Source of the DNA: Haplodiscus bocki | Lineage: Eukaryota | Direction of reading: 5' to 3' | DNA length: 64,000 bases | NCBI GenBank assembly: GCA_965655095.1 | Contig: OZ296649.1 | Location: 4,712,001-4,776,000 of the forward strand | Shown: piece after piece, positions 4,546-56,789 of the stretch | Layout of the letters: every line of letters starts with the position of its first letter | Numbering within the stretch: the first letter of the stretch is position 1 | Made by a program: the position numbers and the translations under genes | The notes under the pieces: generated by a model | Database searches by the model: none | Seen by the model: the letters and a program-made list of their open reading frames with translations, nothing else | Told to the model about the DNA's origin: nothing

Positions 4546-4689
4546 CTAGATACTGATGCGAGTTAATGCTATGTGAAAAAAGTGTTTTAAAAACTAAAAA
4601 AACGTGATTAGAGCGTATGAAAACAGCAAAGCATTCAGTATTTGTAACCTGTAAACAGTGAAAGAATCTTCTAAACTGCCTTTATCAAT

Positions 4690-8700: not shown

Positions 8701-8875
8701 AAAAAGAAGAATCTGCAATAAACGTAAAGTTTGAAACAACTTGATTGTCTCATTGCAAAAAAACGGTAGAAAAGTTATGTAGCAAGTGTTACTCCATATG
8801 TTTTACCATATATGAGAAGACCATAAATTGAAACACTAGTGACAAACCCATCAAAGAATCTGTCAAAATAATGTT

Positions 8876-9480
8876 GAAGTGACGCCGTTAGGGCCCTGGC
8901 AATAACACACAACGAAACTTCAGCACAAACTACGTGAATTTAGGTTGTTTTCTTTCAACCGTTAAATTCAGTTTTTTGTTTGAGTCTTTTTAATCCAACA
9001 TTTCTATCATTAAAACAAGACAGTATCCATTAAACCTAAAACGCTATCTGGAAGTCCATGAAATGAAAGATTGGATCATTTGACCACACACAAAAAAAAA
9101 CATAGTCACAAACTCATAGAAGGCGTTTTCAATCACTTTTTCCACACAGAAGTGGAAGTGACTCCGTTAGTACCCCAATAATGATACGCGAGAGGAGGTT
9201 TAACGCATTTCCTATTTTCAGATAATAAGACAGTCCGTCTGGCAGAATTAATCAAGTTGAACTTTGATCCTGCCATCAAGCGACAAACTGTCTGTGATAA
9301 TCACTCAAGTGTGAAAATTTCCCCTGATCAGGAGACAAGTTGGGAAAATTAATCAAGTGGAACAATGATCCCCTCTGGCGACAGTCTGTCTAACAAACGC
9401 TGTCATTAGGATCAACCACTCAGCGTTGGGGCGAAGTGTTGTCTCAGAAAGTCGCTGAAGTGGAACAAACTATCTTGATA
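8876..9480. repeat. Array of short iterated motifs upstream of polB
   Basis: AATTAATCAAGT(T/G)GAAC...TGATCC at ~9247 and ~9347 plus partial copies; GACAGTC(C/T)GTCT at ~9229 and ~9380; GAAGTGAC(G/T)CCGTTAG at ~8876 and ~9156. Confidence 0.55.
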
Positions 9481-11189
9481 GGGATACGGATTGTCTGAAA
9501 TTTATTGTGGTTATCATGTTCAATTTTGTTTCAACTCTCACTCAAAAAGGCTTCCAAGAAAAAAAATTTATTGAGTTTTGCACAGAATGTGTAGCGTAGA
9601 GATTAAAGGCGTCCGAATATATAAAGTTGTCCATTTAGGTCTTTCCAGTGACCTGGGGAAACTATCAGGTTTATAAGAGCTTTAGAACAATTGCACAAAT
9701 TATTGTCAAAAGCGAGATATTTAAATGTGATTGTTCAAATAAAAAGCAATGCCGTTGCAGAAAGTCAAAAACATTAACCAACTGCAAAAATTTCACAACT
9801 ACACCACCGATAAAAGCATTTGGTAAAATTTACTGACTAGTAACAGTTGATGTCTCTCAAAAAATAAATTCCCAGTTTTTGGAAATTGTATTCGCTCTAC
9901 GAAGAACAACCAGAAGAAACTTCGGTCGAAGCGGACGCAGTTGGTCATTTCTACTGCATTATTTTCAATAATTATTAGTCGCAGCATCGAATAATACGAG
10001 ATAGCGAATGCTCCAACATTTTGCCACGAAGTTTTCCCTCTTTTGCGAGTTGAAGACGCAGCGACATTAGATCCTCCAACAACACGTAAATGTTTCTAAA
10101 AGAAAACTTGGTTGTTTGCTCGACAATATGCGTGAACTTCTAAAAGCTTTCGATCAAGCTAGCAAGATCGCCAAATCCACTGCCGAAACCCAGAATTGAG
10201 ATTGCATCTGCAAAGGAAAAAAAAAACAATTTTTTTTCTCATTGCTTTAAAGATATCATTGAACATTCAAACAGACAAAGTTGTTGAACGTTCCGTTCTG
10301 AGAACAAAAAAACCGTGCATGTTTTCCATCAAACAGTTTCAACTACAAGGTAATCAGTTCATGCTTAAGGCAATTGTCAAACTAACTATCGACAAAAGTA
10401 CCATCTAATTCAGGACCGAAATTACGTTGTATATAAGAGTGAAAAACTTGAGAGCAATTACCATGTGTAGCACAGACGATCGTGAATAATGCTTCAACAA
10501 AAGAATTTTTGAGTTTATTGGAAAGGTGGACGTTTTGAACAAAACTTCTTCCTGGATATTTTCCAAGCACAAAAACACCAATAAATCTCTCGGCAGAAGA
10601 GACAACCAATGTCCAGAATGAGCGTCTACGTGCCGGTTGTGCAAAACTTACCTTGAAAATTGAACAATATCGGTTTTTTATGTGTCACCACGGATTATAT
10701 AATTTTGAAGAGACAAAAAAATTAAAAAAAAACGTTATTGGAGTTGGCCATTGTCCTGGCAGGTTTGCAGGTTTTGTTTCAACAAAAAACAAAACAGAGA
10801 GAAATGCGAGTTTGTTGCCTGTCAAGTAACTACTCCGAGATCCATTTTTGGTTTTGGAAATTGTGGAGCCCGGTTGCTTGTTCTCAAAGCACCTTCTAAA
10901 ATACAGCAGCACGCAAAAAACATAAACACACACAAAACACGCTTCTTCTTTGCGAAAAAAAACAAGTCAGTTGAAATGGTTCAGTCTTTTTAATGTCAGG
11001 TAATTGTTGCATTTCAACTACAGTTACTGCAAGTTTTACGGGAGAAGTTCCTGGAGTTGTTGGTACCGCATGATAAAGTCTCAATTTCAAATTTAGCCTG
11101 AGAAAACGTTTTCTATCATCTCCAGTGTTCCAAATCGTCCTGGTTCGAAAAGGAAAAAATGAAAGATAAAAAGTTGAAAATTTTTTTTT

Positions 11190-11737
11190 TAAAAACATTA
11201 AAAGTGGACTGATTGGCGAAAAATTTTTCATATACAGAAACTGTTACATCGAGTAGAAGAATAAATTCTTCAAATTATAATTTCACATGAATAGGTTGTT
11301 GAAATGTTTCTTCCTCTTTCTTTCTTGCAAATTATTGGACTTTAGCATATGAACTCCCTGGCATGTCCTCATTGTCCTGGAGCATAGTCACACATGAAGG
11401 TCTGTTTGGACAATCCACGAAGTCAACCACCACATGAGCCAGTTTGAGTCGTTCATTCATGTTTTGGACATTGTTGGTATCTAAATGGGGAAAAATTGCT
11501 CTCTGCCAAAACTGCATGAAATGGTTGATATCTGACTCTCCCCTTGTAACATTTCTTACCGGTCAAATTTTTTTGTTATCACCCTCCTAGAAAACTTTGA
11601 GTCTTACATGCAAGTCGTTGGAGTCAATTTTGGACCAGGAGGATCCGTCTTCTCTCAAAATTATCCTAACATTTTCCAAAATCCACACAGTCGGTACAGG
11701 TTAACTTGTTCAAGGAGCCAATAGTGTTGTAAACCAT
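11190..11737 (-). pseudogene. Element-A hypothetical gene remnant (copy 1)
   Basis: MVYNTI...LTCTDCVDFGK...SWSKIDSNDLHVRLKVF*...ERLKLAHVVVDFVD...SSYAKVQ, broken by stops and frameshifts. Confidence 0.5.
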
Positions 11738-12799
11738 GTGTTTCGGTTGTCGGTTGTCGAGATATAACACGTGTAGCTGGAAAAAGTAAAAATGAAGTTT
11801 TACAAATTGGAAACTAGAGAATGTTTTTGAAGTTGTTGTTTGAATTTGCTTCTTTCTTAGTGATTGTCACGTGGTGTTTTCGAAATAAAGGATAAAAAGT
11901 TCGAGGGGATCTAAAATATGGAATCTTTTTCTTTTTTTGTAGTGTTGTACAAAAAAGTTTTGAATTGCTTTCCGGAGTCATTTGTTCAGAAAACGTCTCA
12001 ACATTCAGATGGCAGCTGCAAAGTTACAAGTGGGACAAAACCTAAAGCAAAATATTGAAGAAACAGTCTGTTTGTTTCTATAAACTCAAATGGAAATTTC
12101 ATTTTGACTAAAAACTACTGTATTGCCCACCACGGTGACAATATGAGCTTTCTGCCCAAATGCAGATATCACATTTTAATGTTAGGTACCGTTGAAGAGT
12201 TGCTACAAAAATTGGACGCATTGTGTTTCACTTAAAAACTTCTGGACTATCTCGTTACACTGTTCAAGTGTCGATTCAGTGGAAAAAATGTTGTCAAGAG
12301 TGGTCAAGTGTTTGATAATGTGCAAAGAGACAGTTTATTTCAACCAGTTAAACAGAGGAGTGGAACAAATGCCTAGCATTGCCGAAAAGGAACTTTTGGG
12401 GGAAAAGTACAAAACGCATTTTGTGAGCTCTTCCCAAAAGACGAAATCAACACAAAGGAGTGGATCAGCGTTTGCATGAAGTATCGAACCAGTTAGATAG
12501 ACCAAATTTGATCAACTGGTTTTATTTAAAATTGTTTATTGTTTTCTTTTTTGTAATGGAAATTGCTCAAGTAACCTGGTGACCTTTATAAAGAAACGTT
12601 TATAATTTAACGTTTTTTTGACTCCGAAAAAAGTTGCCAAATGTCTTTTGGTAGTTTAAATGTCATCACAACCGTCATCAGTCCCACAACAGTTAGGAAA
12701 CCAACAAACAGATTCCGCCAATTATGAGGGGAACAAACAGCGACACCTTTAACATCCTTTTTCCAAGTGAGACTTTTTCATGCTAGACAAGTTACAAAC

Positions 12800-13270
12800 C
12801 AAATTGTGAATCAAAAATGGTACAACGCGTCAGATTGTGGAAAAAGTTTTCCGTCTTGTGAGATTTTGAAATAGAAACATTCAACGCGTCAGTTCTCAAA
12901 ATAATTTTTGTTTTCGTCTCTTCAGATTTTGCAGTGATTCAAAAAAGCCAATTTCGAAGAAGTATTTTTTCTTCAAAATCAGATTTTTTTGTTAAATTTC
13001 TGTGAAAAAAAAACATTTTTCAGAGAAAAAATTACATAATAAAAATCACATTTTGACTCAAGATACTCCGAAAAAACGAAGAAAGTTCATTTTTCGCTTC
13101 TCTAAAAGCACGATTTTGAAGAAAACGTTTTCGAGAAAAGTCAGATTTTTAACGTTTTTTTCCCAAAAAACTCAGACTTCGAATTAAACGATTTTTTTTA
13201 AAAAAAAGGTAGGCTGTGAACGAAAATTTGTAACAAAGTTCCGATTTTGAATTGAATATTCTACAACGTG
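12800..13270 (+). repeat. Degenerate internal repeat array of element A (ACAACGCGTCAGATT / TCAGATTTT units)
   Basis: Recurrent CAACGCGTCAG and (T)CAGATTTT motifs separated by A/T runs, mirrored at 28200-28660. Confidence 0.6.
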
Positions 13271-13506
13271 AGTAGTGTATAAATAAATATATGAAGCCAG
13301 ACACGGGCACCGCACAAATTATGTCAAATGAAATAGTAGGAAATTATACTATAGCAATGGCGGTACACAGTAATAAAAACCTAATTTTGCGAAAAAGTTT
13401 TAAATAGCCTTATCAAAAGGTGTATACGGGAATGAGAAAAATTTTTTAACTTTCATTTTTTTCTACAACACATGATCATTTCCTCTATAATTTATTAAAT
13501 TCATTT
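13271..13506 (+). repeat. Left TIR of Polinton B
   Basis: Reverse complement of 27960-28199 at roughly 80% identity; begins with AGTAGT. Confidence 0.85.
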
Positions 13507-16420
13507 GATCAAATCTGCTGAAATCAAATAAATCTTCAAGATTTTTTAAGTCTTTGATTATATCTTTGTATTTAAACTCAATACGAAGCTATCGCTATCC
13601 ATATACTGCAATTGTAGATTTTTTTCGTCAAAATAAGGTTGCATTTTATCATAACAGGTTTCATACAAGAATAATTTACTCAATTCTAATTTTGCGAATC
13701 CAAGATAAATTGGCATATCCATAAGTACTTCATCTCGCTTAAATGAACAACTATCATAATTTGTAGAAGATTTGTGAATACCAATGATTGTTAATTTTGA
13801 CTGTTTTTTGAAAGTCTTTCAATATCACGCTTTTTAATAAATTCTACTTTTATTCGATTACGAAAACTTTCCATTGTTTTTCCATACAATGCGTTATTGA
13901 GTAATTTAAAGAAATCTTTTCAGAAATTAAAAACAGCTTGATTTCTCTGTCATTTACTAAAATTTATATGTTTTTCTAATCACCTAAATGAACCAATTTG
14001 TTTAAATGATATTATCTCGTGAAATTTATCAACCATCATACCATGTCTAACATATTTAATTAACATCGTATAATGAATGGCATATTTCTTTATTTGCTCA
14101 TAATTTATTTATTTGTATTCGCTATTTGTTCATAATTTATTATCTGTTTTTCTCATATGACATTGCCAAATATATCCAAGTAAACTAACACAAAATGGTG
14201 GGAAAATATCAAAGTCTTCAAATGATACTTCAATAAAATTCCGAAAAACATCAGGTATTAAAAAAACATCAATTTTTAAGTATAATTTAGATAATTCCTC
14301 TCAGTTTTTAATATTGAAAACTTCAATAAAAACTTTGGTTTTTCATCAAAAGGGCATAATTTTTTAAGTTACTAAAGAAGTCTTCTTTTTATAGTTTTTC
14401 ACTGGTTTTTGACAATCTTCAAGGTTATTGAAATATTCATTATAGTAAGCTTTTTTTTAAATAGATATTCCCATTTATCCGGAAATTCTTCCTTCAAAAT
14501 CTTAAAATCATCGTCATCTAATGCTTTAACTTTTGAATCTAAGCTATTTGATAAAAATCCATAACTACCAAAAAATCTAAAATAATCTTATGTTATTGAT
14601 AAATTTTGTTCATCTGTTTTAGATATATTATCAAAATTTATTTATCATTCCTTTCATCAACCAATTTTTTGAAAAATAGTTCACAATCATAATACTAAAA
14701 TTGTCAAATACAAATGGTAAGAATTTCCTGTATTTCTGTGCGACACTAATATTACATTTGCTTGAGCTGGATCTCTATATTCACCTGCTAAGTGAGAATG
14801 ATCTCTAAGTTTATCAAATTCAAATTTTTTCTCACAAAATCGACAAGTTTTGTTTTTTCAATAGTCTTCTTCAACTTCCTCAGTCACTATAAGATCTTTA
14901 TTAGTGTTTTAAAAAAATATCAGCCTTTTTCTTTTCTGATTTTTTAACTTCACCCACAAACCAATCTATATTATCATCTCCTGAAACAGATTCATAATAC
15001 CCACCTTTTAGGACATTGTTCAATTCAGATACTATATAATAACCATTTCAAATAGGATTTTGTTTATAAATATATGTTGTTTTATTACCCACATTCTCCT
15101 TATCAATTTCATTATCCGCTTCAAAATCTGCAATAATTCTAAAATATAATGGAGTCTTTTGAAAAAATTTTTCCAGTATAGATGAGATTCTGTACATATA
15201 TTTATTGAAATTATCTCTTGTTGACCGCATTTTTGCATATGATTTTTCAAAAAATCTTGATTTGTTTAAGAATCTAAACACCAACTGCAAACAAATTTAC
15301 AAATATGACACCCTAAAAATACATCTAATTTTTTAATGAAAACAAAATGATTTTTATAGAAAAATAAGTCAAAAACTATCCTTCTTGCTGATTTTAAAAG
15401 GTATTATTTTATGTTTCCTTTTATTTTGATCTTGATAAAAACTTCGTTCAAAGATATTCATAGATAAGCTGTTTTATTTCTCTAATCTATGCATATCACT
15501 AAACTTAAACCCATATGTAAAATTCAAACCTCCAATGTTTAGTTCATTAAAATATTGTCAATAAATTGATACTCCGTTAGGATGACCACTTTTTCAATAT
15601 GCTATGGTATGCAACTTAGCTAATATTGACCAAGTGAAACAATACTTATCATCTTTTTGAACATTCAAGATAGCAGAGTTTCTCAAACGATTATCAGCAT
15701 ATGATGAACCATTCAATTCAGTAGTTTTGTAAGAAATATTGTCATTGTTTTAATTTTATCAAATTTCGATCCACTATCTTTTAGTTATAGTCTTTGAGTT
15801 TGTTCTTCTGAGTGAAATCTGACATTCATGTTATTCATATCAGACTTTGTTAAATTTTTATTACCATTTAGGTTTTTAAATTATTCAATTTCATCTAACA
15901 TCTTTCCAACTTCATCTTGTTTATGGAATCTCGCCGAAATTACTGTTTGATATATAAACTCATGTTGGTTTATTAATCTAGCATGAATAGGGGCCATTTC
16001 GTTCAAGATTTTATTAAAATATTGAAAATCTCTTTCAAATTCGGGGAAAAAAGGTTTGATAATTATTTTAGAATTAGCATGATTGATATGATGTCTTTCC
16101 GAACTTTCATTCAATCCAATTTTTAGTGCTCTACCAGTAAAGTAATATGGATTATTTTTTTCTTCAGCTAATTCTTTTTTTAGTTGCTTGTCATCTATTT
16201 CTATACTTTTTTTGGCTTTTTGTTTTAATAGTTTAGGATTATATGTTTTTCACTTTTTTTTCAATAGGTTTCTGAAACAATCTTTCTTGTATAATCATTT
16301 CCTCTTGCTTGTCATTTTCCAATTGCGTTTTTTTCTTTTCAATTGTTCTGCATAAGATGCTCTAGGAACATCAATTTACACAAATATCACATCTGCGGCA
16401 ATTTTCCGTTTTGCGTCGCT
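13507..16420 (-). pseudogene. Protein-primed family B DNA polymerase of Polinton B (internal and C-terminal deletions)
   Basis: DDKYCFTWSILAKLH; ExoI-like IADFEAD; CRFC...RDHSHLAGEYR endonuclease-VII-like insert; motif B KDFFKLLNNALYGKTME (~13880-13920); motif C YMDSDS (~13590-13605). Motif A and the thumb were not found. Confidence 0.85.
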
Positions 16421-17575
16421 TTTTATATAGAATAACAAATTTGAAACGAACTATCTAAGGTCCTACTTTTCTCTAGCTTAATATTGTTTCACGAGTTTTA
16501 TTTCATATTTCATATTCTGGCATAATATCATTATCTTATTCATCTAATTCATCCTCTGTTTTTCATCTTTCTTTTTAATAATGGTACAATACAAATAATA
16601 ATAAGTTATATTCCTTTTTTTAACCTGAGGCTTAGTTTGTAAAAACATTGATTATCAGTAACACCTCAAGATAAATTTTATCAATTCCTTCTGCATTTAT
16701 ACAAAAAGGATCTTCTTCAAAAAAAGTTTCACTTTGCCTTCTAGAATTCAGTTCATCGTAATAATCATTAATAATTTGCTAAATTTTCAATTTCGTTTTA
16801 CCTTTTAACTCTTGTAATTTAATAATCATATCTTGTGTTGTAAGATGTTTAGTATTAACCATAGAATATTATGTTTCACTAATCTTTTTATTAGCATAAC
16901 GTTCTCAACTAGAAAAGAATATGTCTCGTCTAGGAAACTTTTCATCTGTTTGATGTTTTTGTTTCTTATTAATTTATTCACATTCTGGAGTTTGAACTGA
17001 AGAACCATGAGAAAATTCTACCCAATTATTTGTCTTACAGGAAAGACAATGTGGTAGAATAGGTTTACGTTGTTGAAAAAAGTGGTTGTTTTTTTAAGGA
17101 TAAATTTTAACCATCAATTCATTATTAGTTTTCCTAATAACTTTTTGATTTTTTCTGATTTGATTTTCACTTTTACTGGATATTTGGTTCTTCAGCTTTT
17201 CAGTGGATCTCGTACTCTTAATAGAGAAAAGTCGGTCAGATGAATTTCTTTATCGTCTATCCTTTGCTCTTAGATACTGAATACCTTCAAGATACTTCTT
17301 TCAGAAAAGTCAAAACACATCCAATCAAATCGTAACGTTTCATATTCACATAAAAATACCTATCATAAAAAGCTAACAGTTTCGATAATGTCAAACTATC
17401 ATGTCCAAAATTCTATATACCTGTTGATGTTCTTGAATAATAGTTTTGTTCAAAAACAAGCTAATCTTTCATTTTTTATATTTTTCGATTGAAAAATTGT
17501 TCATTTATATTTTTTTTGATTTTCACTTTGGATAAAGCTTCGTATAATTTATTAAAATCTTTACCTCCATATGTT

Positions 17576-17803
17576 TTATATACACCTGTACAGAAGCAAA
17601 AATATTTTCCCGCATATTTTGGTCGATTCATGATGCTTACTTTTTCTCCTCGAAATTTCACTCAGCTCGTTTTTTCTTTTGATCATGTTACAATTACACG
17701 AAATACATGAATTTTCATATTCATTTGGAAAGAACAAATTTTGACCATTATATCCACATTTTTTCGCATGTTTTTGAATGATTTGATCTTCACTTAATTC
17801 CAT
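17576..17803 (-). pseudogene. Small Cys-containing hypothetical protein of element B
   Basis: 75-aa ORF directly downstream of the integrase, with decayed Cys pairs (KKCGYN...CISC). Confidence 0.3.
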
Positions 17804-17869
17804 TTATTGAGTCCCTTTTTTTAATTAGGTTTATTCCTTTCATAATTTGATTGTTTTCATTAAGAGCTA

Positions 17870-18690
17870 AATTTGTGAATTTTAACAGATTCTCGTTGTA
17901 TCTCTCAGCTAACTAGTCAATTCGATAGCTAGGAATACCATCATGTATGACTTTGGCTTTTGTGTAGAATTTATATGACCAATTTGCACTGTCTCCTTTT
18001 TAGAACACTTTTCTAATATCTGCTGTTCTAACTAATTGTCCTAACTTACATTTTGGTTTAAGTGTTTTTCTTTTGTCTTGGAGATTTCAGTAAACTATCT
18101 TTTTTCTTTTTTATGAACGCTTGATTGGGAGTCATGTTTTTGAATTGTTTGTGTTGTTATTACTATTCTTAATGACTGATGGGAATATATTAACCCAATC
18201 AGCATCACCCCGTTGGAACTAAGGTTTTTTTAAGAAGATCCCTAATAGTTCTATTAAAACGTTCTGCTATTGATGGTCCTTCAACAGAAAAACGAGGATA
18301 ATGTTGCATATTTTTGAGTTTCCTGAAATTTTGAAAAAATCCTATTTTAAAATCATTTAACTCGATCGCTTTCTTTTAAAATAGGTTTTCTTTTTGAAGT
18401 AGATCGTTTACTTGAAATTTCATCTGACTTTGTTTGAACATTTTTGTTTTTTAAGGAGATAGTCCAACCATATTCAGAGAAATTATCAATCACTACTAGA
18501 ATATATCTATATGCTCTGTTGTTTGACGTTTTATAATCGTTTAAATCTAACAAATCGAAACCCTAATTTTCGCCGATGTGATTACATAGTAATTTTTTCC
18601 TTTCATAATTCTTCTCAATGGGTTTGGATTATCAATATACGTTTGAGTAACATTCCTCTTGGGCATTTAATTTCAAAAACTAACTTGCTT
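17870..18690 (-). pseudogene. Retroviral-type (rve) integrase of Polinton B
   Basis: LDLNDYKTSNNRAYRYILVVIDNFSEYGWTISLKNK...KRKP..ESDR, then GPSIAERFNRT-like and KWSYKFY-like segments. Frameshifted. Confidence 0.85.
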
Positions 18691-19254
18691 TCACTTTCTG
18701 AACCAAGTATAATCGTTTATCAATTTTAGCTTTTTTGAAAAATTTTCATTACAACACATCGGTCGAAAAAACTATTTCAAATTAGGAGATTTTAACTTTT
18801 CTATTTCAGTAGGTAAATCAGCTTTGGATAAAAGATAACACTGATCGATACACCACATACCACCATAATTTTTGATATTCATATCACCATCAATTTAAAA
18901 AAGTATCCATCTTTTGAAAAATGATATAGAACATCCTATTAAATCAATAGTATTATCTAATTTCTCAAGATTTTGTGCTTCGAATGCTTGATTTGTTCTA
19001 CGTCTTGTATTACAAATAATAATTTTTAATTTATATCTCCTTGTTTTCTGTTTTTTTCACGTAAAATTCTTTACTCTTTTTTTACTATGATATAGTTTAG
19101 CACAATTTATCCAGTGAGATTGTAAACCATCTTTTTTAGTACTATGTATATAGAAGTTTACTTTCAATTGTATATTTCTACACTTATAACATTTTTAAAC
19201 CAATTCCTCAAAACAAATGTTCATTTGCTAAACATGTTTCATTTCAAATAAAAT

Positions 19255-19690
19255 CACATATCTCGTAATCTCAACCCATTTTCAAGCATGTCGGTTAGTG
19301 ATAAAAATTTACCTCCCGATATACCGTTTAAAATAAATGTAGTAGCTTGAGCAACTTGAGGAGTTTTAGTTTTGGCTCCAACAGCCATACCAATAAACGG
19401 TGCTGCAACATTGTCTGCAGGTTTTAAAAAGTTTATTCCAAGCAGCTTGTGGTCCTGGGAACACTGATTTTAGTTTATTTTTAATTGAGCCTCTTTCCAT
19501 TTGAAATTGTCTTGCAGTAAAAGTAATTTGCTTTTGACATTTACGATTAGGATTTTGACAAAGATCATGTAATTTAAGTATATCACCATTATTTTTCAAA
19601 TCACACTATGCTGAAGCTGACCTATCTGAACAGTATTTATTTTTGCATCGACCGTTTTTCATAAAAACTTCTCATCGTGTCATTTACTTA
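19255..19690 (-). pseudogene. Small basic/amphipathic virion core-like protein of element B
   Basis: LHDLCQNPNRKCQKQITFT...GSIKNKLKSVF...AAPFIGMAVGAKTK...ISGGKFLSL: Gly-rich amphipathic pattern. The function is inferred. Confidence 0.4.
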
Positions 19691-20959
19691 GTAAAAAATT
19701 GTGAATATTTGCAAGCCTAAATACCATAAGAACGTTTAATAATTTTAGTGAGTTTTTGAATTTTAGGGTTTAATTTTTCATATACATTCTGAAATATGGT
19801 ATCACTATAGTGCCTACCACCAACACGCCACGTCTTTGTCATTTAATTTGAAAATCATATTCAAGAGGAGCACTCGGTTGAGAATCATTATAACTTTTCT
19901 TTCTCTTTCTTGGTTCAAATAAGTTTAAAATTATACAAGAATTATTATTCACAGAATAGACTCCTTACTTATTATATCACCGAAAATATCTTGTACTTTG
20001 AATTGTGTATTTTTCATAGTGTTTTTTCTCTCATCTAGATAAAGACTTATAAAATTTTTTTAATTCTAAAGCTTCTTTATGATCGTTTTTTTAAATCTAT
20101 CAACAATTGTTTCAAAGTCTTTCCAAAAAGACGAGTAAAAAAAATAAACCAATCTCGTAACTTAGTACATCTTATTCCTAGATTACTAATATCTTCATTC
20201 GTAATTAGAACAGCAATAGGTATTAACAAAGCTGCACTAGATGATATAACAACACCTGCACTAGGATTTAATATTGCTGAATTACTTGAACTTTTTGTGG
20301 AAGAAGATGTGATAATTAATATTACTTTTTTTTATTCAAACTCTTACCTTTTTCCCGTAAAAATCAATATGAACCTTAAAAAATTTCAAAATGTTCTCAT
20401 GATCCTGCCTCTCCAATTTATATTGTAGATGTCTCAACTGATCATCTTTTGTTTTACTTTTTACCAAGTCTGGGTCTTTTTTATATTCGGATATGCCATT
20501 TAAGCAACAGAAAATACCATTCTAATAATTGTAAGGCAAAGTGTTTCTTTAAATATTTTTGTCTTTGTAAATATTCTAGAGCTAGATTTTTTTATTGGAT
20601 TATGTTCATCATCTGTAAATTTGTTTTGTTTTAAAATATCTGGATCTGTTAGTGACAGTAGTAATTTTAACGATTTTTCATATGTAACATCTTGAAACGT
20701 TTTAGCAAAATATTGTTCCACTTACTTATTCAAAGTCCTTTATTAGAATCTTCTTCATTTTCAATATAATGAAAGTAGTCTTCATTTTGTTCCATTAAAA
20801 TACTTTTAAACTCTATACAAAGACGATTAATATCATTTATAAGGAATCCATATTCTTGTAATCAATCAAGATCGTTTTTAATTAAAAATATCAATACCAC
20901 TAATTTTTTATATTTTGGGATTGATTCAAACAGGTCTTTAAAATAACTGATTTGATCCA

Positions 20960-22270
20960 TTTAGTAAGCAGAATGTGTTATTGTAATAATAATACTAAAG
21001 CACATATCACCATGTAGACTATCGATTTAACCAATTATTATCTTGATACCATAAATTTCTACAATAAAAAATAAACTTACTTCCGTCCATTGAGTTGGTG
21101 TATTGCTTTATCGATCATTTTTAGGTATGTTATATCTAGTTGACCAAGTATCATCAACTAGTAACTATTGAACTCTAAACATACCCGTTGATTTTAATGG
21201 ATCCTTAGTTAAAATTGAGAATTTAATATATTAGAATCTGATATTACTAAATTGAATAATATCGGTTCTTTCGAAGCTACAAAAAAACACTTGAACCATG
21301 GATAATACCACTTGTCTCATTATACAAAAAACTATTACCGATAGGTGGTAATTTTGTTGCTCCCAATTAGCCCGTTGGATTGCTTCTCTTTGTTGATACT
21401 ATAAAGTTTTGTCTTTTACCATTATTATTTTTATCATTGTTTTTCATATTCCATTTCTGTAAAAGATATCTTCCGGTGTTGGGATATTTAATAAATGTTG
21501 TAACAAAAACTTTTATTCCACCATATTTAATAAGAATATAAACATCCTTTCCAACGGATACTTTGAGAGAGTTTTCTAGTGAACGATTAAATGTTAAAAT
21601 ATTAGTACCACCTAATGAATCACAACATACTTTCTATTTGCTAATTGCTTATCTGAACTAGGTTTTCTAATAACTGTAATACTAATCCAATTTTAGGAAA
21701 ATAATCTTACCAACTTCATTATCTTGATCCTTAAATACTGATAAAAAATCTCGTCCATTTCTACTGTTTTCATGTAGGCTACCAACATATGATTCGGTAG
21801 GTACTTCTGTTATCGTCTTGGTTGATGTTAAAGTTGAATTAAGAAATTTGTAGTCTTGGTTTTTTAGTTTCAATTTTTCTTCAAGATCTAACCTTAACAA
21901 TGATAACTCATCCACGCTATGAGAAATAGCTTCATCAACGTAAAATTTTGGAGTAAGATGTTCCCGGGCAGCAGGCAAACTATTTACTTTAACGAAACGC
22001 AAATTATCAAGATCTTCATCGTTAAAATCAACATGAACATTGTTTCCTAATTTGCTTGGATCATTCAATCCACTATCTACATAAGTTCTACGAACATAAT
22101 CTGAATTTTCTATGGAATAAGTTAAAAATTTAACTTTAAATTGATTTTTCATGACAATGTCTTCTTCAATGTTAGATTCAAAGTAATTAGTTCTCAAATA
22201 GGGTTTTTGAAGAAAAAAAACTGTATCAAATGTATTCTCAAAATTACCAAATATTACCAAACACATTTAT
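20960..22270 (-). pseudogene. Minor virion / fibre-like protein remnant of element B
   Basis: 194-aa ORF fragment with iterated ..(R/K)xYVD-type motifs (RRTYVD, KFYVD, ESYVG), typical of fibre-like repeats. The downstream part is broken. Confidence 0.45.
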
Positions 22271-22289
22271 CAGCATATTCTGTTTAATT

Positions 22290-22670
22290 AACCAAAATAC
22301 ATTTATCAAATAGCATCGTAAAAATTACCTTCTTTCAATAAGATAGAAGAAAATTAAACAATAGCTACCACACAAATTATGATAAACATCTTGTGTTTTA
22401 TATTTATGATATTTTATTGGTTTAGGTAATTGGTTGAGTAGAAATTCATCGGGAACTCCTCCAAACGAGTCGAAATAGAATGGTGTTGTATCTTTTATTA
22501 TGAAACATGTCCAATGGGTGCCATTTTCAAATCTGTCGTCTATTTTTACAAACCCTTTATCTGAATATACTTTTGACTCCCTAGGATAAATAGGAAAGTT
22601 ATGAACCTTTTGTATTTCACTTTTTTCATAGTATCATTTTTCGAATTATATTTTTTTATCATTTAAATTA
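22290..22670 (-). pseudogene. Adenain/Ulp1-like maturation protease of Polinton B
   Basis: GTHWTCF...FYFDSFGGVP...Q...CGSYC: the His/Asp/Gln/Cys catalytic motif order. Confidence 0.85.
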
Positions 22671-22689
22671 AGTTTTTTTGTTTTCTTAT

Positions 22690-24040
22690 CTCAAATAACA
22701 GTAACTTCAGTAAATTTTGTCCCATCTGATATCAATTCAATATCTCTATATCTGATTATTATCAGAAGCAATCAAGCACTGTTAGTAGTAACTCTATTTT
22801 CTTGATGCAGTCGAATTTGCTTTGGAATAATATGATCAACTTGAATTCTAACATCAATGACTTGAATAGGATAATTGTTCTTCATATCAACATAACTTAT
22901 AAAAGGACCAAGTAGTTATTCTCCAACACAGCCTTTGTAAAATAACGTAAGATCTCTATATTGAACGAGATAGTCATTTGATGCATAGTCAATACCAACA
23001 CCTTAGGAAAGCGAAAACCATCAATATCAACATGATATTTTCCAACATTAAGATTATCATTAACTGCGATATTATTTGCTTTTTTTGGAACTCCTATTCT
23101 AGCAGCTGTTTAATGAGCTGCTATTAGATATTTTGGACTGTTATTATTTTGAGCACTTCCATCATCAACTTGATTTTTCAATAGTGTATCAACCGTTTTT
23201 CTAGGAGTACTCCTTGAATCACATGATAAAATAAAGCTATTTTTAATAGAATCATAAAACATTATAAGCGTTTCAGCATTGGGAATAAATATAGGTCCAT
23301 ACAAAAATAATTTCTCAAAAATTACTTCATTATCCTCACCTAGTGTTGTATAAATATTATCTTGTAAATCACTAGATTTGAAAGTTAGATGAAATCCTAA
23401 TTGTTTAGTAGTCTTTCTAAAACTTCGACAAAAGCCAAAACTATATTCATGAAGTGAATGTCTTTCAATTTTACCTTCATTGGCAGCTATGTCAAGGTTT
23501 TTAATGAGTAAACCTTTAAGAGATGTATTTTGGATTTGAGCTTGAGACTCATCAGTTTTATCAAAATGAGATAGCATATCTCCATCTTTACTTGTTGGAA
23601 CTCTCATAATTCAATAAACTTGTCCACAGTATTTATTATGTTCTATATCTGAGCCACCTTTAACTTAATATGCAAATGCGTTGTTTACCAATCGAATACC
23701 ATCTTCATCTACAAGAACTCTGTCAGCTGCAACGACTTTTTCAATTGTCATTGCATATTGAAGAGTTGTATTGCCGATCTGATGATAATTAATATTTTCT
23801 CCAAACATGAAGTCATTATTTTGATCAGAATAAATTAAATTTGCTGCTTGTTGATGATGAATTTTCAAAAAAAACTCTCTTTATATTTGAATTATCAATT
23901 GTTTCTTTAGATATTAATTGGAAATCTTCAAGGCTCAAATTTATACTATAAAACCATTTCCTGATAAAAATTTGTTCAAGACTTTGTATATTTTGAGGTA
24001 ATATAGAAGTACGATTTTCCATTCGAGGTTTTGGTGTTTG
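22690..24040 (-). pseudogene. Major capsid protein remnant of Polinton B
   Basis: Colinear fragments (FMFGENINYHQIGN...LVNNAFAY; FGFCRSFRK..LGFHLTFK; NSPKYLIAAH) over ~1.35 kb between the minor capsid and protease. Assigned by size, position and recognition. Confidence 0.6.
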
Positions 24041-24084
24041 CTTAAGTTTTTTAGAAATTAATCTTGGTTTTATTAAAGACTTCG

Positions 24085-24875
24085 TCATTTATTGAAAAAA
24101 AAAATTCTGACAAATAATCTGAATGTCATTGATTGACCATTGAATGACACAAAATTTCCATTTTCAGTTTTCGATTTGAAATTGATACTTGACATAAAAT
24201 CTTTTAATTCCATCATATACCATTGAACACCGCCTCCAATTTTTTGAATATACTTATATCCAGGATCAACGTCCATTGTTACTTTATGAATGATACCACC
24301 TCTTTTGCCTTTCAAAATCAGTCCCTGAGCAGTATCACAGTCGAGAAAAATGTTATCAAAGGATATTACGTCTACTGGATTAGGTGATAGATTATCTTTT
24401 TCGTTTTTTGTGCTTGCATTAAATCCTAAAAGATTTCGTATACTATCATCAGGTAGAAAACTAAATAAAGGTTCTTGTCTCGAAAGTTCTGAAAAGATCC
24501 AAGTGTTGAAAATTTGGGTTTCATAGTGAATAGATAAATTGCTTCAGTAAAATTACCTTCTTCGATAATATTCTTCTTAATCCCGTCATATAATGATTCA
24601 AGTTCATAAGCACCTTGAGGGATGTTAATTTGAATAAAACCATCTTTATCAGTAACTGATTTTGCGAAATAGACTTTATTATTTTTGGTTACAAATATAA
24701 AGAAACCGTTATACTCTGTTAAGAAAGTAACGGCTATTTTAAATTGTTTATTATCACTTTGTAAAAGATTAGCTAGATGTTCTTCATGAGTAGGTTTTTC
24801 CCTAACAATCAACGTATGCTCCCCTATTTTCGGTTTCTAATTCAATGCTGTTTGCTCAAATTTTTTTAATAGGTA
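24085..24875 (-). pseudogene. Minor capsid (penton-like) protein remnant of Polinton B
   Basis: IAVTFLTEYNGFF...NNKVYF...IPQGAYELESL; VDPGYKYIQ..GGVQWY...INFK...NGNFVSFNGQSMTFRL, a pattern typical of Polinton minor capsids. Confidence 0.7.
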
Positions 24876-24882
24876 GTTCCAT

Positions 24883-25767
24883 TTATTGATTATGAAATTT
24901 ATAAAGAGCATTTCGATATTGTCGTTCGTTTTGTATGTCAACTCTTGTGTATAATTCATCTTCTAATCTACAAGCTTCTGTTGGAGTTTTGCTATGACTT
25001 GATAGTTTTATTCCTAGCAACACTTCTAATCTAGTATAAAAAACATTTATGTTGGTTGGTATGATAATTCTTGGAATTCCTTGACATTCTAAATCAGATT
25101 CATCTCCATAAGAATCTTCTATAGTTTCTGTAGTGGGTAATGATAATAGAGGATTTCGAATTTTTTCTAAAGCTGTTGGAAGATATTTTAGAGCATCTTT
25201 CTTTCGATTTGATTTCAACTCTTTTGTATGTGTCATTATATAACCCAATAATATTACGTATATCATATACTACTGTTTTCTTTTCATTGTTATCCAAAGA
25301 TTTAGTATTGAGATTTGTATTAGAAAAATAATTTTGCACATCTGGAGTTATAACATATTCTTCATTCTCAATTTTATTTCTTTTTTGTCCAAGTGGTTTG
25401 ATAATTATATTATTCCAAATTACATCTCCATTATCTTTTTCTACTAGTTTGAAGAAAATTTACTTCCCTTCAAAAACGCTAAAATGTCACATATTGATTG
25501 AGTACCTATTTCGTTTTGTATAGCCGGTGTTTGAGTGTTTTCATCTTCAACATCTGGTTTATTAAATACATCTCCTATTTTTTAAAGGGATTCCTTAATT
25601 TCTTCTAATTTTTTAGTGATAGGTGAAAGGTTTTCTACTAATTTCATATCATGTGTTTGTTTTAAAATTCTGTTTTTACTTTCAATAGCTCGTTGATTCT
25701 TCTGTGGTTCTGCTAATTTACCTGAATTAAATAAATCTTGTTCAGTCACATTAGAATAGATACTCAT
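24883..25767 (-). pseudogene. Hypothetical coiled-coil protein of element B
   Basis: Colinear fragments MSIYSNVTEQDL...LSPITKKLEE and IIIPTNINVFYTRLEVLLGIKLS. Confidence 0.45.
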
Positions 25768-25774
25768 TTGTTTA

Positions 25775-26480
25775 ATTTAAAAAGTAGAGCTATTTGGAAC
25801 CAAGATGCTCCTAAAACCTAATCGATATCGACCTGTATATTTATCCCTAGTCTTATCAATGGTTAGTGGTTGATATTTTTCATCCCAACATGTACTAGTT
25901 TAAAAATTGAATTCGTTAAAAGTCATATCCATGGAAGATTTATCTTGGAAAAGATTTTGTACATCTCTGAAGTTATTAGGTTTGAAAATGTGATGGTAAT
26001 TCATAGTAATCTTGACTGATTATGAAAATAGATAAATTATTTTGTCTCGATCTTTTAGACTTTGCTTTTATTCTAGGATCATTCATTTCTTTTCCACTTA
26101 AATAGTCTAAGGTAATAATACCCCCATCATCAAACCCCTGAGGAAGTCTTAATTCTTCTATACTTTCATATGTCTCTATTTCAGTATCTGATTTTTCGAA
26201 GTCTTTATCATTAACTCTCTCCTCAATCACTGAATCTATATCTTTTCATTGAGAATTTTTGGGACTACGTTAATTGGTACAAAACTACTGAAACAAGTAT
26301 TTAATTTTTGATACATTTCTTGATGTAGATTTGGTGAGTAGATGTATATTTTTTAAATATCGTTAAAAAAATTAAATTCAAATTTGTTAGAAAAACTGAT
26401 TTGCCAGATTTTCTGGGTCCGGTAATGATACAATGAACTGGATGAGTTGGGTTTAGAAATTTCTCCATTTATTATTAGTG
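25775..26480 (-). pseudogene. A32/FtsK-like packaging ATPase of Polinton B
   Basis: Walker A HCIITGPRKSGKS (~26395-26435); decayed Walker B (GIITLDY); RSRQNNLSIFIISQDY motif. Confidence 0.85.
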
Positions 26481-27784
26481 ATCAAAGGGTTGAGAATTGT
26501 TCATATCATTAAACTTATTAAACATAAAAAAGATAGACCGCATGGTATCGTTAAAAGTAATGTTGGTATAAATGCATCAACATTATCTTCATTGTCTGTA
26601 CATTTAGTGAATGTGATAATATCACAATCATCAGTTAATTTCAGCACATACATTTATAGAACATTAAATGGAATATTACAATCTTTTCTGATTAAGAGAG
26701 GGTTAATAATTCTATCTAGCGAATTTATTGATCAGGAATTTTAGAATTTATCATATTTATTTTTAATTCGACCAGTTGCATAGGCTGTTTAATATAATGT
26801 TCTTATGTCGTGTCTCTAAAAGAATTTTTAAAACTAATTCGCCTTTCAATTACCTGATCTTGATTGGTTTTAGACAACATTACTTTTCTCGGAATATAAA
26901 ATTTATAAAGTAAAATTGACCGAGGTTTAGTTCTAATATATCTAGCGCGATTTGTAGCATTTAATAATTTTAAAAAAGATCGGACCTGACGTTCCTCAAA
27001 ATGTTTATTACAGATATTAACAAGTTTTGTCAATATTTCGTCAACTTTATCAAGATCGAGATTTCAAACAACATATCTTGATATAAAAGAGTCGTTGAAC
27101 TGAGTATGGGTCATAGATTTAAAATGGTTATCTTTTGATGTAGATTCCATTCTTTTATCACATAAATGACAAAAATAAGGTCATTTAATAACATTGAAAT
27201 CATCAACGTGTTCTTATATTTTCATGTGCTTGATGTTTCTCATAAACATCAAAAACATTAACGTTTTCCTATATTTTTTCATTTGTTTGATAATAATAAC
27301 ATTAACGTAATCTTATAAACTTCAATCTTTCTGGACAATGACGAGCAAGTTGTTTGTAATAATTTAACAAATTCGATCATGTGTTAACAAGGAAACAAGG
27401 AATAGTCTTATACTGATGGAGCTAATATTCAAGTGAACTGTTGGAGCGATTGAACGATGGTGAGCATGATGTATGATATCAGAAAGTTTTTAAAATAACT
27501 CTACTGGCCAACTTTCTGATCTACTTTCTTCAACAAATCAGAGTGAGCCTTCCTGGCAGAGTTCCCCGTCGATCTAGTCAACTGTTTCAAGCATCAAAAT
27601 GTAGACAGTTCCTCCATATAGCTTTTGTGCATGATGAGGACAAAGGCAGGGGGACGTTGGCTAATAGTGAACCCCAAACACTATGACTACCAATCAAGCA
27701 TAGTCTTAACTTTAGCCAATGTCACAGAAACCACTAGGCTATAGGACGCAGAATAGAAAATGAGAAACTAGAATAAATTGACAT

Positions 27785-27910
27785 ACTCTGTTATGTCGAC
27801 ATAACTGGTAGTGGTGAATTTTTCAGTCTAGTCTTTGTCAACAAAGTTGGTAGTGGTATTTTTCAATCTCGTGCAGGTTCTGTTATGTCAACATATTTGG
27901 TATTGCAGTC
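27785..27910 (+). repeat. Three degenerate ~45-bp subterminal repeats containing the palindrome GTTATGTCGACATAAC
   Basis: GTTATGTCGACATAACTGGTAGTGGT, TTTGTCAACAAAGTTGGTAGTGGT, GTTATGTCAACATATTTGGTATTG. Confidence 0.6.
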
Positions 27911-27959
27911 TCGCTTACAAGGTAAAAGAGCATGTGTAATACTTTTATTGATTCTATGT

Positions 27960-28199
27960 TCAAATAAACCCAATAAATTGTAGAGGGAATATTCATGTGT
28001 TGTAGAAAAAAATGTAAGTAAAATGTTTTTTTTCTCATTCCTGTATACACCTATTCATAAAACTAATCAAAACTTTTTTAGCAAACTTATTTTCTTCTAC
28101 TGTGTACCCCCCTTGATATAATATAATTTCCTATTAACTCTTTTCACATAGTTTGTGCGGTGCACGTGTCGGGCTTCATATGCTTATTTATACACTACT
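27960..28199 (-). repeat. Right TIR of Polinton B
   Basis: Ends in ...TACACTACT; inverse of 13271-13506. Confidence 0.85.
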
Positions 28200-30509
28200 C
28201 ACGTTGTAGAAATTTCAATTCAAAATCGGAAATTTTATACAAATTTTCGTTCACAGTCTACCTTTTTTTCAGAAAAATCGTTCAATTCGAAGTCTGCGTT
28301 TTTTGAAAAAAAAAGTTAAAAATCAGACTTTCCTCGAAAAAGTTTTCTTGAAAATCATGCTTTCAAAAAAGCAAAAAATGAACTTCTATCCTTTTTTCGG
28401 AGTATCTTGTGTCAAAGCGTGATTTTTATCATGTAATTTTTTCTCAGAGTCTTTTTTTCACAGAAATTCAACAAAAAAATTTGATTTTGAATAAATATTT
28501 CTTCTTCAAAATTGGACTTTTTGAATCATTTCAAAAACTGAAAAGACGAAAACAAAAGTTATTTCGAAAAATGACGCGTTGTATGTTTCTACTTCACAAT
28601 CTGACAAGACGGAAATTTTTTTCCAGAATCTGACGCGTTGTACAATTTCTGATTCACAATTTGTTTTCTAAATTGTCTTTCAAGTTATAGCATGAAAAAG
28701 TCTCATTTGGAAAAAGAAAATAAAGGATGCCACCGTTTGTTCCCCTATAATTGGCGGAACCTGTTTTTTTGTTGGTTTCCTAATTGTTGTGGGACTGATG
28801 ACGGTCGTGATGACATTTAGACTACCAAAAGACATCTGCCAATTTTTTTAGGAGTCGAAAAAAAACGTTAATTTAAAAAAGTTTCTTTTTGAAAGTCACT
28901 AGGCGACTTGAACAAACTCACACGGCTTTTGAAACTACTTCCATAACAAACCAGGAAACAATAAACAATTTTGAATAAATCCAGTTGGTCAAATTTATTC
29001 TATCTAACTTGTTCAATACTTCATGCCAACGCTGAAACACTCGTTTGTGTTTATTTCGTCTTTTTGGAAGAGCTCACAAAATGCTTTTCGTACTTTTCCC
29101 TCAAAAGTTCCTTTTCGGCAATGATAGGCATTCTTTGCACTCCTCTGTTTGGTTGCTTGAAATAAACTGCTCTTTGCACATTACCAAACACTTGACCACT
29201 CTTGACAACAATTTTTCAGCTGAATCGACACTTGAACAGTGTATAGGGAGAGTCCAGGTGTTGTTATGTGAAACACAATGCGTCCAATTTCTGTAGCAAC
29301 TCTTCAACGGTGCCTAACTATAAATGTGATATCTGCAATTGGGCAGAAACCTCATTTTGTCACCGTGGTGGGCAATACAGTACTTTTTGTCAAAATGAAA
29401 TTTCCATTTGAGTTTTTAGAAATAAAAAAATGTTTCTTCAATATTTTGCATTAGGCTTTGTCCCACTTGTAACATTGCAGCCGCCATCTGAATGTTCAGA
29501 CGTTTTCTGAACAAATGAATCCGAAAAAAATTCAAAACTATTTTTTGTACAAGACCACAAAACAAAGAAAAAGATTCCATATTTTAGGTGCCCTCGACTT
29601 TTTTTCCTTTTTTCCGAAAACACCACGGGACAATGACCAAGAAAGAAGCATATGCAAGCAACAACTCCAATATCATTCTCTAACCTTCAATTTGTAAAAC
29701 TTCATTTTTACTTTTTCCAGCTACACGCGTTATATCTCGACAACCGAAACACATGGTTTACAACACTATTGCCACCTTGAACAAGTTAACCTGTACCGAC
29801 TGTGTGGATTTTGGAAAATGTTGGGATAATTTTGGGAGAAGACGGATCCTCCTGGTCCAAAATTGACTCCAACGACTTGCATGTAAGACTCAAAGTTTTC
29901 TAGGAGGGTGATAACAAAAAATTTTGACCGGTAAGAAATGTTACAATGGGAGAGTCAGATATCAACCATTTCATGCAGTTTTGGCATAGAGCAATTTTTC
30001 CCCATTTAGATACCAGCAATGTCCAAAACATGAATGAACGACTCAAACTGGCTCATGTGGTGGTTGACTTCGTGGATTGTCCAAACAGACCTTCATGTGT
30101 GACTATGCTCCAGGACAATGAGGACATGCCAGGGAGTTCATATGCTAAAGTCCAATATTTTGCAAGATAGAAAGAGGAAGAAACATTTTAACAACTTATT
30201 CATGCGAAATTATAACTTGATGAACTTATTCATCTACTCTATGTAACAGTTTCTGTATATGAAAAATTTTTCGCCAATCAGTCCACTTTTAATGTTTTTT
30301 AAAAAAAGTTTTTCAACTTTTTATCTTTCATTTTTTTTCCTTTCCGAACCAGGACGAAGAGGAACAGTGAAGATGATAGAAAACGTTTTCTCAGGCTAAG
30401 TTTGAAATTGAGGCCTTATCATGTGGTACCAACATTTCCAAGAACTTCTCCCGTAAAACTACCAGTAACTGTAGTTGAAATGCAACAATTACCTGACATT
30501 GGAAAGACT
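28200..30509 (+). repeat. Right arm of ~2.3 kb inverted duplication of element-A DNA
   Basis: Begins CACGTTGTAG, the reverse complement of CTACAACGTG at 13261-13270. Similarity stops abruptly after GGAAAGACT. Confidence 0.95.
29753..30300 (+). pseudogene. Element-A hypothetical gene remnant (copy 2)
   Basis: Same broken frame as 11190-11737, including TAG (~29901) and TGA (~29925). Confidence 0.5.
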
Positions 30510-32007
30510 TAACGCAGAACAAAAACTTTTTGTCTAAAATAGAAAAGTTCCTAAGGTAGGACAGAAGTGTGTGTTCAATTCAAACTGATACAGACAAAAT
30601 AAAAAATGACGAGTACCAATATTGAACAATTTCTACCTAAAAGACAGTGACAACTATCTGAAATTGACAGACAGCCAGAAGCTTTTGACAAAACGAGTAT
30701 ATTTACAGAGTTACGTTTCACGTTGACGTTTTTTTCAAGAAGTGCATTGCGCTAGATGAAACAACTAATCATGATTGAAACAAAACTCGTCAAGAATGGA
30801 TGTTCTTTTTCTAATGAGCAGTTTAGGATTCAACTTTGGAATAAAAAGTTCATTTGATCACAATAGTGCTTGCAAAAACTTTTTCTAAGTGCATTTTGCT
30901 GTCGGTATGATAGCTTTTTTGCGCGAGATGGAAAAGAAAATTAAATTTGATGGAACCATTGGTAATGGTGACTTGACTTTGAAAGATAAATTCTGTCTCT
31001 ACAGAGTATTCAGACAACATACAATACTGCATGAAGCTATTCTGCTGAAGGCCCTCGCTACTGTTAGATGATTGGCGGGGGAACAAGTTAATGTCTGCTT
31101 AATCAAGTGATGGGACTTCTCATTTCTCTTCACGTAAGACACTTTTGACCTTCCATTTTTTAGTCAACTTTTAAAACAAAGTGTCTTGCATTTTACTAGA
31201 ATTCGAGCTGGCCTGGTAGATGAAAACGTTATCAAGGAGTTGAAAGTTTGTTGACGGGAATGTTTGGAGTTACTCATTTCCTCCTCCAAAGAAACACTCC
31301 CACAGAACAAGCATTGTGTTGTGATGAGTTTTGCACAGATTTGTGTCGCACAATAGATGTTTGGATTACAATGAGCTTCCCAACATTCTTCTCACAGAGG
31401 TAATGGCTGAATACTTGGCAAAAAAGACAGAAGCTTGCAAGATTCTTGACAATTGATTGGGCGAAGAGTTGGAACACTTTGATGAACACGGCTGTTCCAA
31501 AGTTCGAGATTTTGTTGATACTAAAATATATGAAGAAAAGGAGAATTGCTTCCGATAACTTTTTCGAACACAAAGCCATACTTCATCGAGCACAGCGCAA
31601 CGCAAAAATCCTTGGTAACTGGAATGCAGCGTTCGAAATTGTAACTTTTGCATTGTGAAATTTGTTGTCAGTACCTACCTAACTAAAGAACCTAAAAAGT
31701 TTCAACATTTATTCTGAGATTCTTTTTTGAGTGATTGAGCGTATAAACTAAATGACTGATCAAAGAGGAAACATTAACTTGAGCAAAGTTGTCTTTGACG
31801 ACAAAAATCAAGAGAGAAGATCGTGGGTCTGTTGGCGTCAAACACGTTCCAGATCTTTTTTTGTCTTTATGTGCCACCTTTTTGTATTTTTGATGTTTAG
31901 GTTTAGTTGCCTTGAAGAATTCATTGTTCAAAAACTTCTGACGAATCAACTGTTTGAGTGGAGGTATTTTGTACTGCTGCAGTACACCTTTTACCGTCAC
32001 CAACACT

Positions 32008-34829: not shown

Positions 34830-34849
34830 CGTCAAATACGTCCCAAAAA

Positions 34850-35229: not shown

Positions 35230-35263
35230 GAGAAATTTTTTTTTCAACCATTTCTCACTGATC

Positions 35264-37038: not shown

Positions 37039-37039
37039 A

Positions 37040-37430: not shown

Positions 37431-37484
37431 ACTTGTTCTCTCTAATTAACTTTAAACTTTAATACACTCTCTTCACATAGCATT

Positions 37485-54690: not shown

Positions 54691-54693
54691 CAT

Positions 54694-56781: not shown

Positions 56782-56789
56782 TGGGGTAA

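Follow-up and report, generated by a model that had tools for sequence, protein, structure and literature searches.

How does a transposable element come to lie between two mirror-image copies of neighbouring DNA, rather than between the short direct repeats found around other copies of its family? This question is raised by a 64,000-nt window of the Haplodiscus bocki genome (GCA_965655095.1, contig OZ296649.1, positions 4,712,001-4,776,000 of the forward strand; coordinates below are those of the window), in which a decayed Polinton, here called B (13271..28199, minus strand), is inserted in a second, older and dead Polinton, A. Polintons generate target-site duplications (TSDs) of 6 bp, and B-family copies carry them; in the window, by contrast, the AGTAGT termini of B are bordered by a mirrored flank instead of a TSD. 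The structure is a real and old rearrangement that formed in place, and it is not a giant new terminal inverted repeat (TIR). Its probable origin is a template switch from inside one TIR of B to the other, followed by overshoot past the terminus and rejoining to A, and credible mirrored flanks recur at at least four other Polintons in the genome.

Self-BLAST, which was used to find the inverted pairs and direct repeats of the window, reports a single inverted pair, 10979-13511 versus 30513-27957, with 87.8% identity over 2581 columns (242 mismatches and 37 gaps). The two termini of B (AGTAGT from 13271 and the ACTACT that ends at 28199) are joined to one and the same nucleotide of A: the junction CTACAACGTG|AGTAGT occurs once in the window (13261-13276) and its reverse complement once (28194-28209). 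These positions bear out the initial annotation, made from the letters of the window, in that both ends of B meet A at the same nucleotide and no direct TSD is present at the B ends in the window. The inverted match of about 2.3 kb that it described is also present, with arms that are old (90.7% identity over the 2268 ungapped columns of the flank part). The 19.5-kb giant inverted structure that it drew is instead a 2.5-kb inverted pair with a 14.4-kb spacer, with no palindrome, and the outer ends of the arms have no TSD (GAAATG versus GCAGAA, read by eye).

The left-side junctions (10980, 13270 and 13511) were checked in Logan short-read contigs of 4 runs, all from one study and covering two samples, possibly with the source sample among them. 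Junction 10980 is bridged in 4/4 runs (contigs 10250-11021 or 10478-11021), as are 13270 and 13511 (contigs 12300-13545 or 13077-13545). At the inner junction, 13511, the bridging contigs extend 34 letters on the short side; no short-read contig among the 4 runs crosses the whole 19.5 kb.

The host element is recognized by comparing the window with three family copies, which places the regions at 4.1-11.0 kb and 28.2-37.9 kb as the two halves, left and right, of a single A element that keeps the same orientation. The left half (4073..10980, plus strand) includes a decayed left terminus and TIR, while the right half (28200..37881, plus strand) ends in ACTACT at 37881; the TIR pair differs at 66/314 columns (21%). 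The hexamer TTCATC (4067..4072, plus strand) is a probable decayed left TSD, matching TTCAAC at 37882-37887 in 5/6 positions (chance of about 0.006 at a fixed register, for a decayed left terminus that was placed by eye). Domains were called by Pfam on open reading frames (ORFs) of relatives and on stop-free ORFs of the window, and genes were placed in the window by tblastn. A predicted integrase (33112-34013; rve in the relative, E 3.5e-10) and ATPase (31942-32439; Pox_A32 in the relative, E 1e-04) lie within the plus-strand right half, and a broken pPolB-like gene (4740-7962, minus strand) is mapped with a long ORF of a relative. This ORF has no Pfam or PDB match, and the pPolB call is based on motifs and a weak pairwise match (E 1e-05) to a DNA_pol_B_2-positive ORF. 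The integrase, ATPase, TIRs and 5/6 TSD, together with the motif-based pPolB, identify A as a Polinton (Maverick).

The right arm is native because the left and right parts of A are colinear in one element; it runs colinear into A up to about 37,400. Family comparison thus identifies 28200..30513 (plus strand) as the native segment and template, and 10981..13270 (minus strand) as the mirror arm, an inverted copy of A 28200-30513 that is supported by self-BLAST, family comparison and the contigs bridging about 10980. At the mirror arm, A lacks 1.2-1.5 kb (1208, 1466 and 1474 bp versus the three relatives). The B insertion site is an internal tandem repeat of A with TACAACG(C/T)GTCAGA units, and insertion of B at a terminus of A was rejected on this ground. 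Position 10981, where genome matches start, was also considered as a natural A-family end and rejected, as the relatives continue past the right arm. Elsewhere in the same genome (G000; loci are given below as C1, C2, C4, C6, C8 or C9 plus a position), a young A copy with a 6-bp TSD is nested in the opposite orientation in an older A copy (C4:112395003-112430798). Two A-family elements (L107 and L108) are inserted right after TACAACGTG, one of them within the same region of another A copy; a target preference for TACAACGTG is possible, with a count that is not above that of the control.

The gene set of B (type B DNA polymerase, packaging ATPase and double-jelly-roll capsid) is supported via the ORFs of relatives and mapped by tblastn, all on the minus strand: pPolB at 13509-14950 (tblastn span 13466-14950; relative's DNA_pol_B_2, E 7e-07), a capsid-like gene at 22694-23871 (relative's DJR-like_dom, E 4e-09) and the ATPase at 25780-26468 (relative's Pox_A32, E 2e-12). 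A stop-free stretch of 69 aa at 18356-18562 (minus strand) may be an integrase fragment, with a weak rve match that is below the cut-off (E 0.14). The element has 16 stops in 1443 codons, similar to copies with 88-92% identical TIRs (0.8-1.4 per 100). The right TIR (27483..28199, minus strand) is at least 0.7 kb long by family comparison, and TIR pairs of the B family are alignable over 699-1034 columns. By comparison, the left TIR is a remnant of about 240 bp (13271..13511, plus strand; 34 mismatches in 235 columns versus the right TIR). The region from the terminus to the 3' end of polB spans about 1.2 kb in relatives versus 0.24 kb at the left end in the window, which is without about 1 kb kept in relatives, including the end of pPolB. 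The TIR of about 235 bp in the initial annotation is thus a truncated remnant, which appears 235 bp long because about 1 kb is missing there. At the inner junction (13505..13516), relatives and contigs reveal the TIR joined straight to the truncated 3' part of pPolB. A further deletion of about 390 bp versus relatives is noted in B. With the left TIR truncated, its effective extension to about 2.5 kb is not upheld, and a role of the mirror as a working end is unsupported. A composite mobile unit with 2.5-kb TIRs was likewise rejected, as there is no outer TSD, A continues past the right arm and no other composite is found.

Additional variation is observed among B-type elements. The pPolB at L194:6778-8610 (C1:10.598-10.600M) is interrupted at the YxDxDS motif of the polymerase by an intein-like insert that includes a LAGLIDADG homing endonuclease domain; the B of the window is without this insert, the site of which is about 27 codons from the inner junction. 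In a large B-related group, the TIR starts with a unit of 250-500 bp that finishes with the terminal motif in inverted orientation, which gives each end two termini and lets it form a hairpin (e.g., C1:10961756-10962034 and 10981438-10981717; L154 and L155).

Common to both arms are 9 in-frame stops and 9 frameshifting indels, with 4 and 3 private stops; this comparison uses the frame of one relative that is only about 69% identical, so some common indels may be subfamily differences. Three of the 9 common stops are inside a near-identical tract (29729..30150, plus strand; partner at about 11340-11740), and the 6 outside it are counted as common by descent. The tract has 8 differences in 400 bp (permutation p 0.0002) and is probably the product of later gene conversion between the arms. 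Third codon positions show no excess of differences between the arms (33/105, p 0.76), and private changes are symmetric (55 versus 53). No other A copy of >75% identity is found among the 40 candidates scored in each of three genome searches, no second A::B composite is found in the genome searches, and no close A copy lies within 30 kb on the upstream side of the window or 10 kb on the downstream side. The lack of such an A copy, the common stops and the neutral, symmetric divergence together argue that the left-arm copy was made locally, in place, after A had died.

These data bear on the recombination routes of the initial annotation. A crossover between two oppositely oriented composites, and an amplified composite with many copies of the junction, are not borne out: the genome has 4 junction matches, of which the 2 outside the window are A-family termini and not B, no A copy among the scored candidates exceeds 75% identity, and the disabling mutations are common to both arms. 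The same findings speak against two B insertions at one site. The lost left junction, GACACGTTAGTAGTRTR, has 1 genome match, without similarity to A, B or the window.

By contrast, the idea that one junction was copied onto the other receives support in kind. B would first have integrated normally with a 6-bp TSD, after which a broken or stalled DNA end in the left TIR may have switched to the right TIR, guided by TIR homology. Copying would then have run outward past the right terminus through 2.3 kb of A flank. The return point would have been further on in A, removing the left TSD and 1.2-1.5 kb of A, with a second join to A that may have needed little or no homology. Enzymes of host repair or replication presumably acted, by overshoot of synthesis-dependent strand annealing or by template switching of the break-induced replication type, and the arms may later have exchanged the 400-bp conversion tract. 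One A copy, the native right arm, the inverted left copy, the loss of the left TSD with 1.2-1.5 kb of A and the making of the copy after the death of A are the parts of this path observed in the window. Adenoviruses (panhandle repair) and poxviruses (end-to-end copying) also copy one end onto the other through an inverted terminal repeat. The adenoviral model offered in the initial annotation does not carry over to the event itself, which took place in the chromosome: native A extends past the right arm, the same A copy receives the left arm in its left half, and there is no outer TSD. Unlike in these free linear genomes, the copied DNA is a chromosomal flank, and both outer ends are joined to the same host element.

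The relative ages of the repeats are in keeping with the proposed path. Divergence falls from the A TIR pair (21%) to the B TIR remnant (14.5%) to the flank arms (8.8%), and the remnant is more diverged than the flank (34/235 versus 200/2264 differences, p 0.007, with the limits given below). On the evidence of the window alone, the mirror may date from the insertion of B or from somewhat later.

Other Polintons provide further examples. The survey of end pairs is based on 58 candidates picked by eye from the exact-motif matches listed (three lists holding the first 100 matches each and one complete, with about 3000 termini matching one motif); one was no pair, leaving 57. A TSD was called at 4-6/6 matching positions, with six called by eye at a decayed terminus. 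The end pairs include: (i) 46 with a direct TSD, (ii) 1 with neither TSD nor mirror, and (iii) 10 with a mirror that begins at the terminus, of which 4 are credible and old, 1 is special and 5 are near-identical (99.2-100%) and possible assembly artefacts. The mirror rate is 4/57 (7%, interval 2-17%) to 10/57 (18%, 9-30%), probably inflated by the exact-motif selection, which favours homogenised ends.

Of the credible old mirrors, C9:10389341-10406348 is the most informative. Its mirror is 87 bp long (2/87 mismatches), and its TSD is kept (5/6). Two termini are present at the right end. The alleles of the left TIR are found in the inner terminus, next to which comes the mirrored left flank; at a short TC(A/G)GC match, this flank copy rejoins what was originally the right TIR, of which the outer 80 bp follow. 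This arrangement reflects copying from the opposite TIR, with overshoot, after normal integration; the retained TSD shows that mirrors can form after normal integration. At C2:39591208-39607025, the mirror is 1284 bp of single-copy DNA that is 6.0% diverged. The outer 450 bp of the TIR are 4.9% different and the inner part 21%, and this step, about 450 bp inside the TIR, is as would be expected from a switch inside the TIR. The remaining two are a 113-bp mirror at C1:26.06M (6/112 differences) and an 18-bp mirror at C1:89.13M, which gives way at TAAAAA to a direct duplication of 258 bp from the left flank (25/256).

The near-identical mirrors are at C1:3.17M, C1:10.58M, C2:49.1M, C4:69.7M and C2:135.1M. 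At C2:135.1M, no contig among those listed bridges the outer junction, one contig is unbroken into the native flank, and the depth inside the mirror is higher than that of the native-flank contig. The special locus is C2:14697494-14729035 (L214, L215, L224 and L225), where both ends of an A-family element lie at the same nucleotide of two 3.9-kb TIRs. These TIRs belong to a third, long-TIR family with outer ends that start AGTAGT or AGTATT and have a 6-bp TSD by eye; the locus was rejected as an ordinary mirror and counted apart, its 3.9-kb flank being the long TIR of another family. Outside the 57 and found by similarity, C6:97721678-97732462 (L110-L112) is a fold-back of the right half of a B copy, with 4.9-kb arms and a 915-bp spacer; 890 bp of flank plus the outer TIR are 100% identical, and the inner part is 86-100% identical in patches. 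It was set aside as proof against a need for TIR homology, as it may combine an older fold-back with a recent or artefactual 890-bp mirror. Double termini were rejected as a sign of a hidden mirror, which they mark in 2/7 loci; the other 5 (C2:129.19M, C9:64.0M, C1:58.8M, C1:16.46M and C8:21.6M) are direct tandem duplications. In two of these (C1:16459053-16471920 and C8:21602395-21604979; L280 and L138), a Polinton terminus and neighbouring DNA are amplified in tandem with periods of 4.3 kb and 1.1 kb.

Several points weigh against the template switch after normal integration. The left end of B is lost as far as the boundary of the mirrored block, which is equally compatible with one event coupled to integration or primed by microhomology. 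TIR pairs undergo conversion and are thus a poor clock; the difference between TIR remnant and flank weakens to p 0.058 once the converted tract is removed, and the stop density of B does not separate the age of B from that of the arms. The TIR remnant has no clear divergence step, unlike the TIRs of C2:39.59M and of some of the near-identical, possibly artefactual mirrors. At the second junction, a possible TTAATGTC match lies in roughly the right register, as judged against 70% relatives only, and microhomology is not fixable at either junction of the window, given decay and the lack of close relatives. Among the other loci, the inner-TIR figure of C2:39.59M may include alignment beyond the true TIR, flank divergence at C1:26.06M and C1:89.13M is near that of the TIRs, and the sharpest cases of a flank younger than its TIR are the near-identical, possibly artefactual mirrors.

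A single event at the time of insertion is the main rival, though an unlikely one. Integrase would have joined only the right end of B; the free left end, after losing about 1.2 kb, would have primed on the right junction and copied the TIR and flank, and host repair would have joined the copy to A. Such one-ended integration would explain the truncated left TIR, absent TSD and target deletion in one step, and it retains some plausibility in the window because the left end of B is truncated at the edge of the mirrored block. It is in keeping with the decay of B, which is like that of copies with 88% TIR identity and near the 89-91% of the arms, and with the account of aberrant HIV and ASLV (retroviral) proviruses, which have truncated ends and duplicated, deleted and inverted host DNA (PMC5041404). 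The rearrangement at C1:89.13M, similar in age to its TIRs, resembles these proviruses. Against this origin, the TIR remnant is more diverged than the flank, with the reservation given above, the C9:10.39M mirror coexists with a TSD, and the separate deletion of about 390 bp in B indicates that independent deletions occur.

Improbable by comparison is an inverted duplication of the dead A::B composite nearby, followed by crossover or deletions between the copies. Common stops and neutral divergence would also result, and nested and inverted A copies exist in the genome (C4:112.4M); however, neither a second composite nor a close A copy is found, including in the flanking 30 kb and 10 kb, and extra deletions would be needed that leave A colinear with its probable TSD. 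An assembly mis-join or amplification chimera is very improbable. Such artefacts may exist in the assembly, as the unbridged outer junction of C2:135.1M suggests among the contigs listed, and no contig spans the 19.5 kb; however, the arms differ by 9%, with private changes that are symmetric, each of the three left-side junctions is bridged in every run from both samples, and A, with its probable TSD, runs colinearly through the whole structure. That B inserted independently into two A copies at one nucleotide, with recombination afterwards, is scarcely credible and largely refuted by the 9 stops and 9 frameshifts in common, which in the absence of purifying selection point to arms from one dead genomic copy, despite the weak hint of a favoured site in two A-family termini that follow TACAACGTG elsewhere (a reversed control pattern also has 2 matches).

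The template switch has counterparts in other systems. In plastids, the inverted repeat is described as expanding when a break in one copy is repaired on the other and synthesis passes the boundary (bioRxiv 10.1101/2021.06.21.449227, in its text on Goulding et al. 1996). As in that description, a single-copy flank would be turned into a repeat by overshooting break repair; by contrast, the repeats of the window are TIRs of a dead nuclear Polinton, the copied flank is outside the element, and the product is a chromosomal scar rather than a maintained genome feature. At human inverted low-copy repeats, inverted triplications lying between duplications (DUP-TRP/INV-DUP) are attributed, in PMC11293582, to iterative template switching with junction 1 inside the inverted pair and junction 2 at microhomology. 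The proposed model shares this two-junction switch, with the microhomology of junction 2 not fixed in the window; it differs in its kilobase scale and in a return point that lies ahead, which would yield a deletion and an inverted duplication. The inverted triplication is absent in the window, which has two arm copies and a deletion instead. In one-ended retroviral integration, one end is joined normally by integrase and the other is truncated and attached to neighbouring DNA that has been duplicated, deleted or inverted (PMC5041404). The B of the window similarly has a truncated end adjoining inverted neighbouring DNA; however, in that account inversions arise less often than the other products and the ends of the virus are direct repeats, and at least one mirror in the Haplodiscus genome coexists with a TSD, an outcome this route would not leave. 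A and B share their gene set and ends with Polintons/Mavericks as described in PMC8502044 (adintoviruses). Plastids, human inverted repeats and retroviruses provide precedents for the repair chemistry, which seems not to have been described for Polinton ends; no description of mirrored flanks there was found in the open-access literature, with subscription papers outside the search.

If 7-18% of copies are mirrored, annotation by TIR plus TSD would mis-draw element boundaries, TIR divergence would under-date copies, and each insertion would provide a starting point for deletions and inverted duplications of the host DNA nearby. To our knowledge, excision of integrated Polintons is an unsettled question. 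A speculative and rather doubtful possibility is that, after integration, Polintons suffer repeated cuts at or close to their termini, made by their integrase or another encoded nicking protein during failed excision, and that repair from the opposite TIR leaves mirrors on about one in ten copies. Such scars would form a datable record of reactivation attempts and a route for Polinton TIRs to take in host DNA or the ends of another element.

The remainder of the window includes a Gypsy-type long terminal repeat (LTR) retrotransposon at 45273-61017, with 1.76-kb LTRs that are 99.2% identical and gag, protease, reverse transcriptase, RNase H and integrase on the minus strand. This element has about 5.5 kb of extra ORFs on the opposite strand (47242-52826; 467, 201 and 437 aa), which have no Pfam match; ESM Atlas, applied to two of them, gave nothing usable. 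A 230-bp direct repeat (42078-42306 and 42781-43007) is 77% identical, and the region at 1808-3448 has about 80% identity with DNA lying 10-11 kb upstream of the window.

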